NCBI GenBank assembly: GCA_965202805.1
Contig: OZ241869.1
Coordinates: 3,328,001-3,392,000 of the forward strand
Direction: 5' to 3'
Origin: Longimicrobiales bacterium
Lineage (GTDB): Bacteria > Gemmatimonadota > Gemmatimonadetes > Longimicrobiales > Gaopeijiaceae
DNA length: 64,000 nt
The notes beneath the pieces were generated by a model, which did not search any database, was not told where the DNA came from, and was given only the letters and a program-made list of their open reading frames with translations. The translations under genes were made by a program, and so were the position numbers. The first letter of the stretch is position 1; every line of letters begins with the position of its first letter. Positions 42,796 to 50,889 of the stretch are shown one piece after another.

Positions 42796-44001
42796 CTACA
42801 TCGGCACGCCCGGGCCCGTCCCCGTCGTCCCGACGGCGGCCCGCCGCAACTCGCCGGCGGCACTACTGTCGCCCGGGGGCGCCTGGAGCTGCTCGAGCCA
42901 TTCCGCGAACCTGCGTTCCGGGCGGCCTTCCCAGGCCCGGCGGTGCCAGGCGTCGCTCGCGAGCAGCGAAAAACCCAGCGTGGCTTCACAGAACACCATC
43001 TGTTCGCGCGCGGTTTCCACCTTCCCCCAGCTCGTGGCCTCGCGCAGGGTGGACCCGGACAGCGCGCCGTCACGACTGTCCGCGACCGTGAGCTGCACGG
43101 CGTAGCGGTGCATCGGCACATCCGCGGGCGTCGCCGCGCCGGTCCCATCTTCTGAAGCCAGCGCCCGCGCCCCGGCGACATCGTCCTCCTGCAGCATCTC
43201 CGCGGCCACGACGATGTCCTGCGCGAAGTTCTTCGGGACCCCTCCCCCCAGCATCAGCAGCCCCGTAGCACGGGACGCGAGCTTGATCCGGGCCAGTTCG
43301 AGGAAGTCCTTCCCCGAGTCCAGCGACACGGATTCGCGCCCCTCGCGCGCGGCCGCAGCCCGGTGCAGCACGATGCCGAACCCGGCCGAGGAGTCGCTGA
43401 GGGCGGGGACGAAGATCGGGATGCCCTTCCGGCAGGCCGACAGCACCACGGATTCCGACTCGGGAAAGGTGGTTTCGAGAAACCGGCCCATTTCGGTCAG
43501 GATTTCCCGGGAGGAGTAGGCGCGCGCGGGAAGGCGGTCGAAGATGCGCCTCATCGTCCGGTCGCAAACGCGCAATTCGTTTTCGTCGATGTACGTGTCG
43601 TAGATGCGATCGATGGCCAGCTCGCGCAGATGCTCATCCGGCACCGCGGGATGCTCGGGCGAGCCGGGCGCCATGTAGTGCCGGAAGCCCAGGGCCTCGA
43701 AGAAGTCCTGATCCACCATGTTGGCGCCCGTCGACACCACCACATCCACCATCCCGGAGTCGATAAGCGTCACCAGCGCCTTCTTGAGGCCCGCGGACAC
43801 GAGCGATCCGGCGAGGGTGAGGATGACGGTGCAGTTCCGGTCGGCGAGCATCTCGGAACAGATATCCGCCGCGCGCGCCAGGTTGCGGGTCTGGATGGCG
43901 GTGCGCCGGAACTGGTCGATGACCGGGCGGGCGTCGAACGCGCGGATGTCGACGTGCTCCACCGGCCGGGAAAGAAGGTCGCGTCTGGTGAGCTCGCTCA
44001 C
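42796..44001 (-). CDS. Deoxyhypusine synthase-like protein (probable SpeY-type homospermidine synthase)
   Basis: LAGSLVSAGL, STGAN, RIYD, DSSAG, GGGVPKNF, GALSGSTLREATSWGKV with the catalytic Lys. Confidence 0.9.
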   Translation of the reverse strand: MSELTRRDLLSRPVEHVDIRAFDARPVIDQFRRTAIQTRNLARAADICSEMLADRNCTVILTLAGSLVSAGLKKALVTLIDSGMVDVVVSTGANMVDQDFFEALGFRHYMAPGSPEHPAVPDEHLRELAIDRIYDTYIDENELRVCDRTMRRIFDRLPARAYSSREILTEMGRFLETTFPESESVVLSACRKGIPIFVPALSDSSAGFGIVLHRAAAAREGRESVSLDSGKDFLELARIKLASRATGLLMLGGGVPKNFAQDIVVAAEMLQEDDVAGARALASEDGTGAATPADVPMHRYAVQLTVADSRDGALSGSTLREATSWGKVETAREQMVFCEATLGFSLLASDAWHRRAWEGRPERRFAEWLEQLQAPPGDSSAAGELRRAAVGTTGTGPGVPM

Positions 44002-44229: not shown

Positions 44230-44257
44230 TTGACGATTTCGCAAGACGGCATATCAT
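44230..44257 (+). promoter_or_regulatory. Putative sigma70 promoter of the arg operon
   Basis: TTGACG-16 bp-TATCAT in an AT-richer patch upstream of argR. Confidence 0.55.
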
Positions 44258-44275
44258 GTGCATAACACTGTTAGT

Positions 44276-44314
44276 ATGCCATTTTGTCATGTGGCGTCTG
44301 CCAAAATGGCAGAC
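44276..44314. promoter_or_regulatory. Putative operator pair: ATGCCATTTTGTCAT and GTCTGCCAAAATGGCAGAC
   Basis: Palindromes just downstream of the -10; the second is the exact reverse complement of 24239-24257. Confidence 0.55.
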
Positions 44315-44346
44315 CGACGATGGATTCCCCGAGACCCTCTGCCGGA

Positions 44347-44823
44347 ATGTCAGACCGACGAACAGCTCCCGCACGACGCCGGGCGGTGATCGCGGCCATC
44401 CTGGAGAAGCGCCAAGTCGCCAGCCAGGCGGAATTCGTGCGCCTGCTGGGAGAACGGGGGATCGCAGTGACCCAATCCTGCATCAGCCGTGACCTGGCCC
44501 GGCTGGGAGCGATGAAGGGCGCGGGCGGCTACAGCCTGCGGCCTCTCAACCTCTCGGAGGAGGACCGGCGCACGCTATCGAGCTATGCGCGCGCGGTGCA
44601 CGCGGCAGGTCCCAACCTTACCGTGGTGCGCACCGCCACAGGCGCTGCCCAGCGCATTGCGCTCTTCCTCGACCGGATGGGTTGGAAGGAAGTCCTGGCG
44701 ACGCTGTCGGGCGACGACACCATCTTCATCGCGACGCGAAACCGCAGCGAGCAGCGCGCCCTGGTGGGCCGCCTGCGTCGCGAGGCCGGCCTGACGAGTC
44801 CGCGGAGCGGGGGCAATGCGTAG
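44347..44823 (+). CDS. argR: Arginine repressor
   Basis: SQAEF, VTQSCISRDL, VVRTATGAAQ, TLSGDDTIFI; start 44320 or 44347. Confidence 0.93.
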   Translation: MSDRRTAPARRRAVIAAILEKRQVASQAEFVRLLGERGIAVTQSCISRDLARLGAMKGAGGYSLRPLNLSEEDRRTLSSYARAVHAAGPNLTVVRTATGAAQRIALFLDRMGWKEVLATLSGDDTIFIATRNRSEQRALVGRLRREAGLTSPRSGGNA

Positions 44824-45874
44824 CATCGTCATCGACAAGCTGGCGTCCGTGGCCTCGGACCTGGGTGCCGACCGCGAAATCCGCGTGGGCGACGCCATTC
44901 CCAGCGAGGAGGGTGTGATGGTCGCGGTGGAGGTGCTGACCGAGAAATCCTCCTACAACCAGCTCGAACTGGCCAGCGGGCGCATGGCGCGCGTGCGCCG
45001 GGGGGATGTAATCGTGGGCGCCCTGGGCCACCGCAAGGCGCTGTTCGGCTATTCCGGATACGTGCCCGAGACCACCCGGCCGGGCGACATCGTCCAGATC
45101 CTGAACATGGGCGGTGTGCTGGGCGTATGCGACGCCGTCAACGCGTCGCTGGGGAAGCCTTTCGACGCGCGTGTGCTCGGGGTGGTGCTGGAGTTCCCCT
45201 ATCTCGGCGAGCGCGTGGGCGTCCCGGCCCGGGTGGGCGGCGACCCACTGGACGCCCGGCCCGAACTGGAACTGGGAGGGGTTCCCGTGGTAGCCCTCGC
45301 GGGCACCTGCATGAACTCCGGCAAGACGGCGGCCGCATGCGCGGTGATCGGGCGTCTCCGGCACATGGGGCATGTGGTCGACGCCTTCAAGGCGACCGGG
45401 GTCTCGCTACGGCGCGACATCCTGGCCATGGAGGACGCGGGAGCGCGCAACACCGCCATTTTCACCGACTTCGGTGTGGTAAGCACCGGGCCGGGAAACG
45501 CGCCCGGCCTGGCGCGCACCATGTTGCGCCTGCTGGCGACCGAACGGCCCGACGCGATCGTCTTCGAGCTGGGGGACGGAATCCTCGGCGCATACGGCGT
45601 GGAGGCCATCCTGCGGGACGACGCGGTGCGCGCAAACATCTCGTGCCTGCTGCTGTGCGCGTCCGATCCGGTCGCGGCCTGGGGCGGCGCGCGGCTGCTC
45701 GAAGAGGAGTTCGGGATGTCCCCTGCCTTCATCACGGGGCCCGCGACCGACAACAAGGTCGGGCTCGACATCATCCGGGAAAGGACCGGACTTGACGGCG
45801 TGAACGCGATGACGCACGGCGCCCGGCTCGGAGATGCCGTCGCCGCCCGCATCGGGCTGGGCGCGCATGCCTGA
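44816..45874 (+). CDS. DUF1611-like P-loop protein of unknown function within the arg operon
   Basis: LELASGR...GDVIVGALG.R, Walker-A-like GTCMNSGKT, KATG, D.G..ST, FELGDG; overlaps argR and argC by 8 bp each. Confidence 0.75.
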   Translation: MRSIVIDKLASVASDLGADREIRVGDAIPSEEGVMVAVEVLTEKSSYNQLELASGRMARVRRGDVIVGALGHRKALFGYSGYVPETTRPGDIVQILNMGGVLGVCDAVNASLGKPFDARVLGVVLEFPYLGERVGVPARVGGDPLDARPELELGGVPVVALAGTCMNSGKTAAACAVIGRLRHMGHVVDAFKATGVSLRRDILAMEDAGARNTAIFTDFGVVSTGPGNAPGLARTMLRLLATERPDAIVFELGDGILGAYGVEAILRDDAVRANISCLLLCASDPVAAWGGARLLEEEFGMSPAFITGPATDNKVGLDIIRERTGLDGVNAMTHGARLGDAVAARIGLGAHA

Positions 45875-46922
45875 GACGATTCCCGCCATCGTGCTCGGCG
45901 GATCCGGCTACGTCGGCGGCGAGTTGCTGCGCCTGCTCGCGTCCCATCCGTGCATCCGACCGACCGCCGTCGTGTCGCGAAGCCGGAGACGGGAGCCGGT
46001 GGAAGCTGTCTTCCCGAACCTGCGGGGCGTGTGGCCGGAGCTGAGCTTCACGTCCCTGGACGAGCTCCCCGACACGCTCGGAGATCGCTGCGCCATCTTC
46101 TCGACGGCCGCCCATGGAGCCAGCGCCCGGCTGGTCGACCGGGCTCTGGGCATCTGCGAGGAGCGCCAATGCGTCGCCAGCGTGGTCGACGTCTCCGCGG
46201 ATTTTCGTTTTCGCGACGCCGACGCGTACGAGGCGGTGTACGGGGTCGAGCACGGGGCCCCGGATCGCATGCCGATGTTCCGCAGTCTGTTGCCGGAGCA
46301 CGCTACCACGCGAAAGCCCCGCCACGTCGGCCATCCCGGATGCTTCGCGACCGGCATGCTGCTCGCCAGTATGCCGCTGATGCGCCCCGGACTGGTCGAT
46401 CCCCGCCTGATGGTCAGCGCGGTGACGGGAAGTACCGGGGCGGGCCGCGCCCCCCGGCCGACCACCCACCATCCGACCCGGCACGCCAACATGTTCGCCT
46501 ACAAGCCCCTCGCGCATCGCCATGCGCCGGAGGTGGAGGGGATCCTGCGGGCGCTGACGGGCCGCGGCGTCCAGCTTCATTTCGTTCCCGGCTCCGGGCC
46601 GTTCGCGCGCGGGATCTACATGGTGATGCAGGCTCGGCTGCTCGACGGCGTTGAGGCGAACCAGGTACGCGACGCCTATTCCGACCATTATGCGAAGGCG
46701 CCCTTCGTGCACCTGGTGGATGTTCCGCCGAGGCTGAAGGACGTGGTGGGCAGCAATCACGCCCGCCTGGCCCTGGCGGTGAACCGGGGCGTGCTGGCGG
46801 TTGCGGTGGCGCTCGACAACCTGGTCAAGGGCGCCGCCGGCGGGGCGATCCAATGGATGAACGTGCTGCACGGGCTTCCCGAAACCACCGGGTTGACCAC
46901 CCCCGCACCGGGGTGGACATGA
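45867..46922 (+). CDS. argC: N-acetyl-gamma-glutamyl-phosphate reductase
   Basis: GGSGYVGGELLRLL, DVSADFR, PGCFAT, GSTGAGR, HRHAPE, DNLVKGAAGGAIQ. Confidence 0.95.
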   Translation: MPETIPAIVLGGSGYVGGELLRLLASHPCIRPTAVVSRSRRREPVEAVFPNLRGVWPELSFTSLDELPDTLGDRCAIFSTAAHGASARLVDRALGICEERQCVASVVDVSADFRFRDADAYEAVYGVEHGAPDRMPMFRSLLPEHATTRKPRHVGHPGCFATGMLLASMPLMRPGLVDPRLMVSAVTGSTGAGRAPRPTTHHPTRHANMFAYKPLAHRHAPEVEGILRALTGRGVQLHFVPGSGPFARGIYMVMQARLLDGVEANQVRDAYSDHYAKAPFVHLVDVPPRLKDVVGSNHARLALAVNRGVLAVAVALDNLVKGAAGGAIQWMNVLHGLPETTGLTTPAPGWT

Positions 46923-46977: not shown

Positions 46978-48168
46978 ATGAACGCACATCCTCCCACGCC
47001 CCTGCCGGACGCGCGCCGGGCCGAAGCGCGGCATCTGGCTCAGGTGTACGGCCAGTTGCCGGTGGAGCCGGTGTCGGGCCAGGGTGTCTACCTGCGGTGT
47101 GCGGACGGGCGCCGACTGCTCGATCTCTACGGCGGACACGCCGTGTGCGCGCTCGGCTACGGACACCCGAGAGTGCTGGAAGCGGTCCGCCGGCAGGCCG
47201 GGGAGCTGATGTTCACCAGCAACCTGAACGCGCTGAGGGTGCGGGCGCGCGCCGCCGACAAGCTCGCCGGGTTCGCGCCGGCCGATCTGGATTGCGTCTT
47301 CTTCGTCAATTCGGGGGCGGAGGCCAACGAGAACGCCCTCAGGCTGGCCTGCAGATTGACCGGCCGCAGGCGCGTGGTCGCGCTGGAGCACGGGTTCCAC
47401 GGCCGCTCGGCTGCGGCCGCCGCCGTGACCTGGCGGGCCCGCGAGCGCTGGTACGGCTTCCCGGATACCCCGTTCGACGTGACCTTCGCCCCCCGCCACG
47501 ACGCAGCCGGGGCGGCTGCCGCCATCGACGACGAGACCGCTGCCGTCATCTTCGAGCCCATCCAGGGCATCGCGGGCGCTTACGTGCTCGAATCGGACCA
47601 TGTGCGTGCCCTGCGCGCCGCGTGCGACCGCCACGGGGCCCTGCTGATCGCGGACGAGGTGCAGTGCGGGATGGGGCGGAGCGGAAAACCCTTCGCGATC
47701 GAGCACACCGGCGTCGTTCCGGACATGGTCACTACCGCGAAGGCGCTCGGAGCCGGGTTCCCCTGCAGCGCCCTCATCATGTCACGGTCTCTGGGCGATC
47801 AGCTGCGAATCGGGGATATGGGGAGCACCTTCGGGGGAGGGCCGCTCGCGTGCGCGGTCATCGAAGCGGTGCTGGACACCATCCGCGAGGAAGGGCTTCT
47901 GCATCAGGTGGCGACCCGCGAGCGAGAGATTCGCGCCAGTTGCGTTACGGGGCCGGTGCTCGGGATTCGCGGGCGCGGCATGCTGCTCGGGCTCGAGTGC
48001 GCGACCTCCGCGCGTGAGGTTCGCGACGCGCTCCTGGACCAGGACATCCTCGCGGGAACCAGTTCGGACCCGGCATGGCTGCGGGTCATGCCTCCGCTTA
48101 CGCTGCGGGCGTCCGAAGCAGCGCAGCTCGCCGAAGCGCTGCGGGCCATGCCGGAGGAGGCAACGTGA
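46978..48168 (+). CDS. argD: Acetylornithine aminotransferase
   Basis: NSGAEANE, FHGR, EPIQG, DEVQCGMGRSG, TTAKALGAG, STFGG; arg operon context. Confidence 0.9.
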   Translation: MNAHPPTPLPDARRAEARHLAQVYGQLPVEPVSGQGVYLRCADGRRLLDLYGGHAVCALGYGHPRVLEAVRRQAGELMFTSNLNALRVRARAADKLAGFAPADLDCVFFVNSGAEANENALRLACRLTGRRRVVALEHGFHGRSAAAAAVTWRARERWYGFPDTPFDVTFAPRHDAAGAAAAIDDETAAVIFEPIQGIAGAYVLESDHVRALRAACDRHGALLIADEVQCGMGRSGKPFAIEHTGVVPDMVTTAKALGAGFPCSALIMSRSLGDQLRIGDMGSTFGGGPLACAVIEAVLDTIREEGLLHQVATREREIRASCVTGPVLGIRGRGMLLGLECATSAREVRDALLDQDILAGTSSDPAWLRVMPPLTLRASEAAQLAEALRAMPEEAT

Positions 48169-49109
48169 AGCGCTTGCGAGCAGCCGACCGGGGGTTTGCA
48201 GGCCTGCGCGCGGCCGCGCCCTACGTCCGCCTCTTCCGCGAGCGCATCTTCGTCCTCAAGGTGGGCGGCGAGGTCCTGCAGAGCTCCGGGCGCATCGATG
48301 CTCTGATGGAACAGGTGGGCATCCTCAACTCCCTGGGGATCCGACTGGTTCTCGTGCACGGCGGCGGGCCCCAATCCACCGAACTCGCGCGCCGCCTGGG
48401 CCACGAGCCCCGAATGGTGGCCGGCCGCCGGGTCACGCGTTCCGAGGACCTGCGCGTCGCCGCCCAGGTGCTGAGCGGCGAGGTCAACACGGCGCTGCTG
48501 GGCGCCTGCCGGAAGGAAGGGTTTCACGCCGTCGGCGTCTCGGGTGTGGACGCCGGCCTGGTCACGGCCACGCGCCGTCCTCCCATGCACATGGAGGGGG
48601 AGGGCCCGGAGCCCGTGGACTTCGGATTCGTGGGAGACATCGATTCCGTCGACCCTTCGTCGCTGCACGTCTTCCTGGACCAGGGATGGGTGCCGGTGGT
48701 GAGCCCGCTCTCCGCGGACGCGGAGGGGCGACTTCTCAACATCAACGCCGACACCGTGGCGAGCGCGCTCGCGCAGGCGCTCAAGGCCACAAAGCTCGTT
48801 TTCACCATGTCGGCGCCCGGCATTCTCCGCGATCTTGAGGACCCGGCGACACTGATCTCCTACCTCGACCTGGCCGGGCTCCGCGAATTGCGCGAGCAGG
48901 GCGTGCTGGCCCGGGGCATGCTGGCCAAGGCAGCGGCCATCGAGAGCGCCATCGAGGGCGGCGTCCCGCGCGTGCATCTCATCTCTGGAAGCGCGCGCGA
49001 CAGCCTCCTGCGCGAAATCTTTACCAACGAGGGCTCGGGCACTCTCGTCGTGCGCAGCGTCGGAACGCTGTCGAGTGACGAGCAGCAGGCGGGGGAACCG
49101 GACGGCTGA
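48165..49109 (+). CDS. argB: Acetylglutamate kinase
   Basis: VLKVGG, VHGGGPQ, GRRVT, NINAD, GMLAK, EIFTNEGSGT; GTG overlaps argD stop. Confidence 0.93.
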   Translation: MKRLRAADRGFAGLRAAAPYVRLFRERIFVLKVGGEVLQSSGRIDALMEQVGILNSLGIRLVLVHGGGPQSTELARRLGHEPRMVAGRRVTRSEDLRVAAQVLSGEVNTALLGACRKEGFHAVGVSGVDAGLVTATRRPPMHMEGEGPEPVDFGFVGDIDSVDPSSLHVFLDQGWVPVVSPLSADAEGRLLNINADTVASALAQALKATKLVFTMSAPGILRDLEDPATLISYLDLAGLRELREQGVLARGMLAKAAAIESAIEGGVPRVHLISGSARDSLLREIFTNEGSGTLVVRSVGTLSSDEQQAGEPDG

Positions 49110-49206: not shown

Positions 49207-49229
49207 TGTGTTCGGTATGTGTTCGGTAT
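49207..49229. promoter_or_regulatory. Direct repeat TGTGTTCGGTAT x2, containing GTTC-N7-GTTC (LexA-box-like)
   Basis: GTTC at 49210-49213 and 49221-49224, just upstream of RBS GAGGAGG. Confidence 0.5.
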
Positions 49230-49245
49230 CAGCGAGGAGGTTCTG

Positions 49246-50013
49246 TTGGCAACAGGCACCGGAATCGAATGGACGGACGCGACCTGGAATCCGGTCACGG
49301 GCTGCACGCGCGTATCCAAGGGCTGCGACAACTGCTACGCGGCGACCCTGGCGGGCAGACTGCTTCGGGACGCCTACCTCGCACGAGCACCAGTTGTCGA
49401 TTCGGACATCACGCGCGCCGACCCGTTCGCGGTTCGCATCTGGCCGGAGCGAATCACACAGCCGAAGAAGTGGCGCGAGCCGCGAATGATCTTCGTTAAC
49501 AGCATGAGCGATCTGTTTCATGCGCATGTCCCGGCGGAGTTTGTGCGCGAGATCTTTCGAACCATGCTCCGGGCCGACTGGCATACCTACCAGATTCTCA
49601 CCAAGCGTCCCAGCCGCGCCTTGCGCTTCTGGAGGCAGAACCGGGACCTGTTCGATGGCGACCCGTTGCCCGGGCACATCTGGCTTGGAGCCTCGGTTGA
49701 GGATCAATCGGTGGCCTACCGGGTTCGCCATCTGCGCAGTATCCCGGCAACGGTTCGATTTCTCTCCTGCGAACCGCTGATCGGTCCGCTCCGGCTTGAC
49801 TTAACGGGTGTCCACTGGCTGATTGCCGGCGGCGAGAGTGGTCCGGTGCGGCGTCCGATGAAGGCCGAGTGGATCATCGAACTCCGCAATCAGTGCCGGG
49901 CTGCGAACGTACCATTCTTCTTCAAGCAATGGGGCGGGCGGACGCCCAAAGCGGGTGGCCGGGAGCTCGAAGGCAGGTTATGGGATGAGATGCCAAGGGC
50001 GGCAGTCGGGTGA
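49246..50013 (+). CDS. DUF5131 (phage Gp37/Gp68-like) three-Cys-motif radical-SAM-like protein
   Basis: IEWTDATWNPVTGCTRVSKGCDNCYA, FVNSMSDLFH, QILTKR, SCEPLIG, GGESG, FFFKQWGG. Confidence 0.92.
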   Translation: MATGTGIEWTDATWNPVTGCTRVSKGCDNCYAATLAGRLLRDAYLARAPVVDSDITRADPFAVRIWPERITQPKKWREPRMIFVNSMSDLFHAHVPAEFVREIFRTMLRADWHTYQILTKRPSRALRFWRQNRDLFDGDPLPGHIWLGASVEDQSVAYRVRHLRSIPATVRFLSCEPLIGPLRLDLTGVHWLIAGGESGPVRRPMKAEWIIELRNQCRAANVPFFFKQWGGRTPKAGGRELEGRLWDEMPRAAVG

Positions 50014-50061
50014 ACAGCGCCACTTCATTCGACACCGGCGTTCCAGGCCGATTGGAAGACG

Positions 50062-50889
50062 ATGGCCCTCTACACTCCGACCGTGAAAGAGCACTCGCTC
50101 CGGAAGATCCGACTGCACAACTTCTATGTCTCGCTCTTCAGCACGGCGATGAAGAACCACTGGCCGCAGCGCGCCTACGTGGGGTTGTATTCAGGAGCTG
50201 GAAGAGCGCGGGTAGCCGAAACTGGCAAAATCGTTGTTACCACCGCACTCTCGGCTGTCCAGGCCCGTTACCCGTTCACGAAGTACATCTTCGTCGATAA
50301 CAATCCCCGCTGCATCGAAGCGCTCGAGGCGCGCATCCAAGCTCTCGAAACCAACGTCGACGTGAGTTTCATCGAGAAGGATGTGTCGGAAGCGGTCCCC
50401 GATGTCATCAGAGCGATGCCGACATACAGTAAGGCCAAAGGCCTTCTGTCGTTCTGTTTTGCCGACCCGTTCTCCGCCGAACTTGACTTCGAGATCTTCC
50501 GAACTCTGGGGAGCAAGTACAAGATCGATTTCCTTGTACTTCTCATGCTGGGGCGGGACGTACGAACGAACTTTCGCCAATACCTGCAGGACGAGAACGA
50601 CGACCGCATTGCCAGGCTCATCGATGATGAGAACTGGCGGGAGGAGTGGATCGCTGGCGGATATCGACGCAGCAACGTGATTCGATTCATGCTCGACAAG
50701 TTCGATCGAGCGATGACCAGAATTCGATATCAGCCCCAAAGGCCTGACGACGCTCATCCGATCCGATTGCTCGAAAAGAAGAATGTTCTGCTTTACTACC
50801 TCGTGCTATACAGCAAGCACGAACTGGGACGAAGGTTCTGGAAGGAAGCTCGGAGCGGAGTCGACGACCAACTTGATCTCCTGAAGTGA
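50062..50889 (+). CDS. Three-Cys-motif partner protein (TcmP-like, methyltransferase-like fold)
   Basis: HSLRK, YVGLYSGAG, FADPF, LYYLVLYSKHELG..FW; directly after DUF5131; visibly more AT-rich than flanks. Confidence 0.8.
   Translation: MALYTPTVKEHSLRKIRLHNFYVSLFSTAMKNHWPQRAYVGLYSGAGRARVAETGKIVVTTALSAVQARYPFTKYIFVDNNPRCIEALEARIQALETNVDVSFIEKDVSEAVPDVIRAMPTYSKAKGLLSFCFADPFSAELDFEIFRTLGSKYKIDFLVLLMLGRDVRTNFRQYLQDENDDRIARLIDDENWREEWIAGGYRRSNVIRFMLDKFDRAMTRIRYQPQRPDDAHPIRLLEKKNVLLYYLVLYSKHELGRRFWKEARSGVDDQLDLLK

Follow-up and report, generated by a model that had tools for sequence, protein, structure and literature searches.

Which enzyme acylates glutamate, the first step of arginine biosynthesis, in a bacterium whose arg operon carries no known gene for this step? 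The question is raised by a window of 64,000 nucleotides of a Longimicrobiales bacterium, in which a gene that we call X lies between argR and argC, in the order argR-X-argC-argD-argB (Table 1). An earlier note, made from the DNA alone, had described the product as a DUF1611/BioD-like P-loop protein, a candidate replacement of ArgA. The ORF of 352 residues, its 8-bp overlaps with the stop of argR (44816-44823) and the start of argC (45867-45874), and the motifs GTCMNSGKT and ELGDG are all present in the sequence as that note had read them. The gene is real and conserved: homologues at E ≤ 0.001 number 6836 among 8000 scored candidates, and 1365 clusters at 50% identity match it.

Table 1. Features of the arg operon and of gene X, in positions of the window
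Feature	Position	Strand	Assignment or basis
Sigma-70-like promoter of the operon, TTGACG-16-TATCAT	44230..44257	+	Promoter-like site scan
ARG-box-like half-sites overlapping the -10 region, putative ArgR operator	44248..44280	.	Hexamer match to an assumed consensus
argR, arginine repressor, probable start ATG 44347	44347..44823	+	PF01316 and PF02863 over cut-off
Gene X (352 aa, ATG start)	44816..45874	+	Predicted N-acyl (succinyl) glutamate synthase
N-terminal all-beta domain of X, residues ~1-147	44816..45256	+	Candidate substrate-binding domain; model pLDDT 93 when modelled alone, strands only
Walker A loop GTCMNSGKT, residues 163-171 (K170, T171)	45302..45328	+	Aligned to E. coli BioD GTDTEVGKT
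K192	45389..45391	+	Aligned to the BioD active-site Lys (Lys37, literature numbering)
ELGDG, residues 251-255, Walker-B-like	45566..45580	+	E251 aligned to the Glu of BioD EGAGG
argC, N-acylglutamyl-phosphate reductase	45867..46922	+	TIGR01850, 282.7 bits (cut-off 233.6)
argD, N-acylornithine aminotransferase	46978..48168	+	Best NCBIfam matches are argD models, below cut-off; operon position
argB, N-acylglutamate kinase	48165..49109	+	TIGR00761 over cut-off

The promoter is the only promoter-like site between 43900 and 49400, where 0.2 would be expected, and a similar TTGAC box is found 5' of argR in many related loci. The half-sites that overlap it were counted with an ARG-box consensus that we take to be the usual one: such hexamers are present upstream of argR in 53 of 68 regions, versus 86 of 1360 random windows. 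The gene argR has in-frame alternative starts at 44320 and 44284, and alignments of the upstream regions point to the start that we give. A direct repeat of 24 bp (44297-44320 and 44338-44361, 41 bp apart, 21 of 24 positions identical) duplicates the start region of argR; the ATG of its first copy is out of frame, and the repeat is also present in our loci L012-L016 and L018. On the minus strand, a divergent gene (42796-44001), which lies close to the operon in each of the seven closest loci, scores 503.4 (cut-off 500) with the model of 1,9-bis(guanidino)-5-aza-nonane synthase, an enzyme of arginine-derived polyamines. On the other side, 3' of argB, a DUF5131 gene and its three-Cys-motif partner TcmP (49219-50889, plus strand) lie in DNA of 58.7% GC, compared to 68.4% for the genome, so that this piece is likely a separate insertion.

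The product of X belongs to no family of Pfam or NCBIfam, the only match being EF-G_D2 at E 0.09. The profiles of ArgA (GNAT), ArgJ and LysX/ArgX are not among its matches at E ≤ 0.1; the earlier note had likewise recognised no features of these enzymes. The sequence of X by itself has no match in the PDB, and the profile of the family finds there only weak P-loop matches (FtsY, BioD, MobB). No relatives were found in viral contigs, nor any match in a metagenome scan with a Priestia homologue as the query.

The AlphaFold model (mean pLDDT 96.3) has two domains. The best matches of the C-terminal domain in the VIA search, over 180-191 residues, are two DUF1611 proteins (Z 16.8 and 16.5), CTP synthase (16.0), BioD (15.9 and 15.8) and DgcN (15.3); the SRP, HypB and UreG GTPases are also neighbours in fold. 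The N-terminal domain has invariant columns at E51, G55, R56, G71 and R73. Its best VIA match has a Z of 3.2 and Foldseek gives none at E ≤ 0.001, which is no proof of a new fold, and DUF1611 entries are absent from its 39 rows at Z ≥ 2, which is still compatible with a relation. The designation DUF1611/BioD-like is thus borne out by structure (Z 15-17), and it is not by the DUF1611 family model PF07755, which does not match X.

An arg gene adjoins X in each of the 80 best loci (out of 534 confirmed GTDB matches); argC is the next gene downstream in 79 and argG the next upstream in 71, the usual order being argR-argG-X-argC-argD-argF'-argB-argH, and no argA, argJ or argE was seen in these 80 loci. 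Sixteen further regions come from other families of the host phylum. In 13 of them the order is argG-X-argC-(argD)-argF'-argB-M20-argH-argR and in two it is argR-X-argC-argD-argB-argG-argH, so that 15 are arg-linked; the last one has a distant homologue (30% identity) outside any arg context. Reduced operons, (argR)-X-argC-argB devoid of argD, argG, argF' and argH, occur in L083 (8608-13093) and L089 (950-4100).

The absence of argA, argJ and lysW from the window extends to the whole genome of the host, which is a single contig and 97.98% complete. It contains no ArgJ and no short ArgA (NF005840, E ≤ 0.001); the only match to long ArgA is ArgB itself; no LysX is over cut-off, and tblastn with LysW and LysX of the sister genus finds no match. 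There is also no N-acylornithine transcarbamylase (ArgF'), and argG-argH, an ordinary ornithine transcarbamylase (OTC) and CarB are encoded away from the operon.

The same exclusion is seen in the phylum. Among 201 genomes, X is present in 65 (64 of the arg type) and ArgJ in 64, and no genome has both, where about 26 would be expected among argB carriers; these counts overstate the exclusion, since kin genomes are not independent, and they include three genomes flagged as unpublished (G053, G152, G177), on which the result does not depend. At the level of genera, arg-type X is found in 20 and ArgJ in 34, with none shared. Short ArgA (E ≤ 1e-20) is present in 71 of the 201 genomes and, by hand count, in none of the 64 with arg-type X. 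The 140 genomes whose argB is over cut-off divide into 59 with X, 61 with ArgJ, 17 with short ArgA only, and three with none of these. In the sister genus, lysW-lysX occupies the slot of X. In a second set of 50 genomes with X, taken from the best 80 and picked mostly for long contigs, ArgJ is absent and long ArgA never passes its cut-off; one stretch of genome G230 matches positions 148-426 of the long ArgA model with 70 bits, below cut-off. The vertebrate-like NAGS domain (PF04768) gives 0 of 51, a count that carries no weight, as no control matches either.

Since the genomes with X have none of these priming enzymes, X would have to acylate glutamate de novo. From its place in the operon and its mutual exclusion with ArgJ, short ArgA, long ArgA and LysW/LysX, we conclude, with good confidence, that X most probably serves step 1 of arginine synthesis as a non-orthologous replacement, as the earlier note had inferred. 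ArgA (GNAT), ArgJ (Ntn) and LysW/ArgX (ATP-grasp) share with X this slot in the pathway, one taking the place of another from genome to genome in the host phylum; no relation to X was found in their sequences or folds.

It may be argued that X is an NTPase that only helps, as a chaperone or regulator of ArgB or ArgC in the manner of HypB or UreG, while an unrecognised GNAT carries out step 1. The GTPases SRP, HypB and UreG have the same fold, and weak partial GNAT matches (E 1e-12 to 1e-16) are indeed found in 12 of the 64 genomes with arg-type X. But there is no reason for a helper to exclude ArgA, ArgJ and LysX, as X does, ArgB, ArgC and ArgD do without X in genomes with ArgJ, and no match to NF005840 is found in the host, so that we regard this explanation as very improbable. 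Another candidate function, that of a carbamate kinase or a substitute for carbamoyl-phosphate synthetase, was rejected: CarB is present, so that X is not needed for carbamoyl phosphate, and the host module contains no transcarbamylase.

Step 1 is not the only gap in the pathway of the host; the other is deacylation. Seven M20 hydrolases of the host match the ArgE model, none of them over the ArgE cut-off and three over a broad DapE/ArgE cut-off, and the genome has no DapE orthologue. ArgE is over cut-off in only nine of 52 genomes with X, many assemblies in this tally being incomplete, and the operonic ArgE-type M20 hydrolase of family f4 is without an orthologue in all of the 53 others. Most carriers of the gammaproteobacterial type of X have no recognisable ArgE. 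Two close gammaproteobacterial genomes have DapE, encoded beside dapD, as their best M20 match; being a desuccinylase, DapE could moonlight on the pathway. Three small gammaproteobacterial genomes (G207, G209 and G210; L169-L171) have a full X operon with a succinyl-type ArgF' and no ArgE match at 1e-30; their best M20 match is again DapE, a candidate moonlighting N-succinylcitrulline desuccinylase.

This pattern would be explained if X, like ArgJ, both made N-acylglutamate and recycled the acyl group, from N-succinylcitrulline or N-acylornithine. In the host module X is alone for protection and release, while the sister genus uses LysW, LysX and an Ntn-type hydrolase. The arginine-feedback motif of ArgB, typical of cyclic pathways, is found in 69 of 72 matches; the ArgB of the window has it as EIFTNEGSGT at its C-terminus, a motif which we take to be of this type. 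On the other hand, X and an ArgE-like M20 gene occur together, in the operon, in 13 of the 16 regions from other families of the host phylum, which argues that X is not the deacylase there, and no Cys is invariant in the family (C105 is kept in 36 and C165 in 39 of 67 homologues). The missing ArgE could moreover be accounted for by DapE and by the incomplete assemblies, and a separate deacylase route exists in the 17 genomes of the phylum that have short ArgA and no ArgJ. A recycling role for X is conceivable, unneeded and, in our opinion, improbable. The idea that X only replaces ArgE, as the sole deacylase, was discarded: X co-occurs with operonic ArgE, and genomes with X would then miss step 1.

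The slot is filled in yet another manner in the sister genus (L180, 5122-10544) and in family f7 (L181, 6806-11504), where the order is lysW-lysX-argC-[Ntn]-argB-argD. The Ntn gene, which codes for an EgtC-like hydrolase of 216 residues, stands in the expected place of the LysK-type peptidase that releases the carrier, and is a candidate non-orthologous LysK.

The acyl group can be approached through ArgF', the N-acylornithine transcarbamylase encoded beside X in most relatives, whose best PDB match is the E92A mutant 3L02. Enzymes for acetylated substrates carry Glu92, Asn185 and Lys302, and those for succinylated substrates A/S/P/V/Q, P and V/I/E at these positions (PMC4581275). Of the 72 ArgF' proteins linked to X, 56 have Ala and 10 have Val at position 92 (six unparsed); position 185 is Pro in 63 (nine unparsed), and position 302 is Val in 38, Ala in 21 and Glu in 13. 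This succinyl-type signature suggests that the X family likely makes N-succinylglutamate. The host itself has no ArgF', which makes the case less sure there, and succinyl is its probable acyl group. The earlier remark that the acyl group might be a different one is probably right, and N-acetylglutamate is likely not the product of the family. The ArgB kinases do not help: GRRVT, which stands in the window in place of GLRVT, is found in all of 81 X-linked kinases and solved acetyl kinases have GLRVT or GFRVT, but 11 of 20 controls also carry GRR, which rules it out as a marker of succinyl.

Two chemistries for the acylation come into consideration, and both had been envisaged in the earlier note. 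In the first, X is an ATP-dependent ligase. In the second, which bears on the mechanism only, L-glutamate would receive its succinyl (or acetyl) group from acyl-CoA, the P-loop of X holding the phosphates of CoA; the model is DgcN, a D-glutamate N-acetyltransferase (PMC12363236; GapMind 2026 preprint), with which X shares N-acylation of glutamate as its likely chemistry. Transfer from acyl-CoA is a real possibility, short of an even chance. In the VIA search, DUF1611 structures rank first and second and DgcN sixth; the clusters of the ESM Atlas that look like X are auto-named DUF1611; PF07755 weakly matches 10 of 67 homologues. The characterised N-acetylglutamate synthases use acetyl-CoA (PMC4490483), and the analogy with DgcN is also drawn in Appendix 2 of the GapMind preprint. 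The three solved DUF1611 proteins (7XRJ, which is DgcN, 2OBN and 2G0T) share with X the C-terminal P-loop fold (Z 15.3-16.8, rmsd 2.9-3.0), but the overlap of 185-188 residues covers approximately the C-terminal domain only, at 14-17% identity. They also differ at the active site: X has GTCMNSGKT and FKATGV instead of GTDxxxGK[M/R] and ATGQTG, so that all three lack the Thr of Walker A and the Lys of BioD type (GKT and K192 in X), and have GK-M (2OBN, 7XRJ) or GK-R (2G0T).

BioD and CTP synthase, P-loop enzymes that form C-N bonds at the expense of ATP, have the same fold (Z 15.3-16.0). The profile of X aligns to 28 BioD sequences with a probability of 93.5, compared to 9.5-21.6 (hhalign) for a DUF1611 alignment whose two sequences are too thin to weigh. 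In the BioD alignment, K170/T171, K192 and E251 pair with the Walker A K-T, the second Lys and the EGAGG Glu of BioD, positions that appear in a list of its active-site residues (PMC9932657); the equivalent of Asp49/54 is ambiguous, D201 or D207. These four residues of X are kept in 65, 65, 66 and 66 of 67 diverse homologues, in all of 104 arg-linked and in all of six distant ones. The set is general to SIMIBI P-loop NTPases. X differs from BioD by its extra beta domain of 147 residues and by the absence of a TIGR00347 match, and a separate bioD match is present in 40 of the 46 X genomes tested.

BioD forms its C-N bond via a carbamic-phosphoric anhydride (PMC11089781). The conservation of K170, T171, K192 and E251, together with this chemistry, makes us prefer, by a small degree, a route from ATP, succinate and L-glutamate over transfer from acyl-CoA, which fits the conserved residues less well. 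Structure alone does not favour ligation, because the DUF1611 proteins are tied with CTP synthase and BioD and the score of DgcN is close.

Whichever the chemistry, X most probably opens an ornithine module repressed by ArgR, acylating the alpha-amino group of L-glutamate de novo in place of ArgA, ArgJ or LysW/LysX. On the ligation route, Mg-ATP at its P-loop would phosphorylate the free carboxylate of succinate to an acyl-phosphate, the parallel in BioD being the carbamate, and attack by the amine of glutamate would give N-succinylglutamate, ADP and Pi. ArgB, ArgC and ArgD would then yield N-acylornithine, from which an unlinked M20 hydrolase would release ornithine for the ordinary OTC, ArgG and ArgH of the host. 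An X that depends on ATP would be a carrier-free counterpart of ArgX. As a whole, we put forward tentatively that X represents a family of acid-amine ligases which depend on ATP and need neither CoA nor a carrier. Made of a BioD-type P-loop domain and a beta domain that has no clear solved relative, they would join succinate and L-glutamate in arg operons and constitute a fourth start of arginine synthesis; where ArgE is missing, release or recycling of the acyl group may be a further task of X, and in phosphonate clusters the distant members may couple a phosphono-acid with an amino acid.

These distant members (25-30% identity) are found in plasmid clusters of L164 (NZ_CP085446.1, 4757-13445) and L166 (NZ_CP116206.1, 1805-10128), along with a PEP-mutase-like gene, a split ThDP decarboxylase, two ATP-grasp proteins, an MFS exporter and an extra transcarbamylase gene, OTC-like in L164 and ATCase in L166. 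Our guess is that the product is a phosphono-acyl amino acid which inhibits a transcarbamylase, the extra copy being for self-protection and the X homologue acting as the ligase. A literature search, at the level of titles, found no description of such clusters. Another distant subfamily (L148, 8874-14173; L165, L167 and L168), annotated as "DUF1611" or "dethiobiotin synthase", retains K170, T171, K192 and E251; its genes immediately precede an ABC exporter or are close to one, and an alpha/beta hydrolase, an S8 protease or an MslH/CapA-like gene is found nearby.

How did the host come by its module? The seven closest loci are 90-93% identical and share the flanking gene; four carry Gemmatimonadetes or Longimicrobiales in their titles, and the other three are titled Gammaproteobacteria, probably unreliably. 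The five genes of the window are 57-76% identical to those of the gammaproteobacterial loci L019-L022 and 32-51% identical to same-phylum operons, while argG and argH of the host are not closer to L019-L022. In a tree of 33 proteins, which left out the distant L148 and 45 of 53 representatives, X groups with L019-L022 (100/100) inside a clade of Pseudomonadota-titled sequences; a clade of X and five f4 sequences is rejected (p-AU 9e-91), the grouping having been picked after a quick tree was inspected. Within the host family, X is present in all of the seven other genomes of the genus and in none of 17 others. The simplest reading is that an ancestor of the host genus acquired the operon from Gammaproteobacteria, and that argG, argF' and argH, whose functions the host already covered, dropped out and X was kept, which left argR-X-argC-argD-argB.

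The earlier note ranked X as the strongest novelty of the window. This was overrated: the step-1 role is not new, as the GapMind 2026 preprint, the only relevant item in a search for ACG33_RS14135, A0A127FCT3 and 7XRJ, predicts that ACG33_RS14135 of Steroidobacter denitrificans is an alternative N-succinylglutamate synthase. (A search on DUF1611 returned, at the level of titles, nothing related to X, and, according to a 2015 review, the gene for succinylation of glutamate was still to be identified, PMC4490483.) X very likely belongs to the same family, because the same operon in Steroidobacteraceae-titled loci (L060, L085, L087-L089) codes for proteins that share 63-67% identity with X. The preprint's family likewise sits in arg clusters with argR, G, C, D, F', B and H, excludes ArgA, often misses ArgE, has a remote likeness to DgcN (for X and 7XRJ, Z 15.3, rmsd 3.0, 186 aligned residues) and lies near a succinyl-type ArgF', as do 66 of the 72 relatives of X, the host itself having none. 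The preprint uses the succinyl-type ArgF' (A/P/S/V at 92) to infer the acyl group and not to define the family; its statement is a prediction only, and its complementation methods do not list argA. The two studies differ on three points: the host described here has no ArgF' and uses an ordinary OTC; the preprint argues from DgcN and we argue for ATP-dependent ligation; its exclusion check concerns long ArgA only. As far as the text of the preprint available to us goes, three things go beyond it: the ATP-ligase mechanism, the OTC-type host, and an exclusion that also holds versus ArgJ, short ArgA and LysX.

The X family would fill step 1 in many Gammaproteobacteria and in about one in three of the genomes sampled from the host phylum, which makes it a common gap in annotation. 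If ATP and free succinate are indeed used, this would be new enzymology for a core pathway. The copy of the host is a good test case, a compact module of five genes that has passed from one phylum to another and has to function alongside an ordinary OTC, and it isolates two questions, that of the acyl group and that of deacylation.
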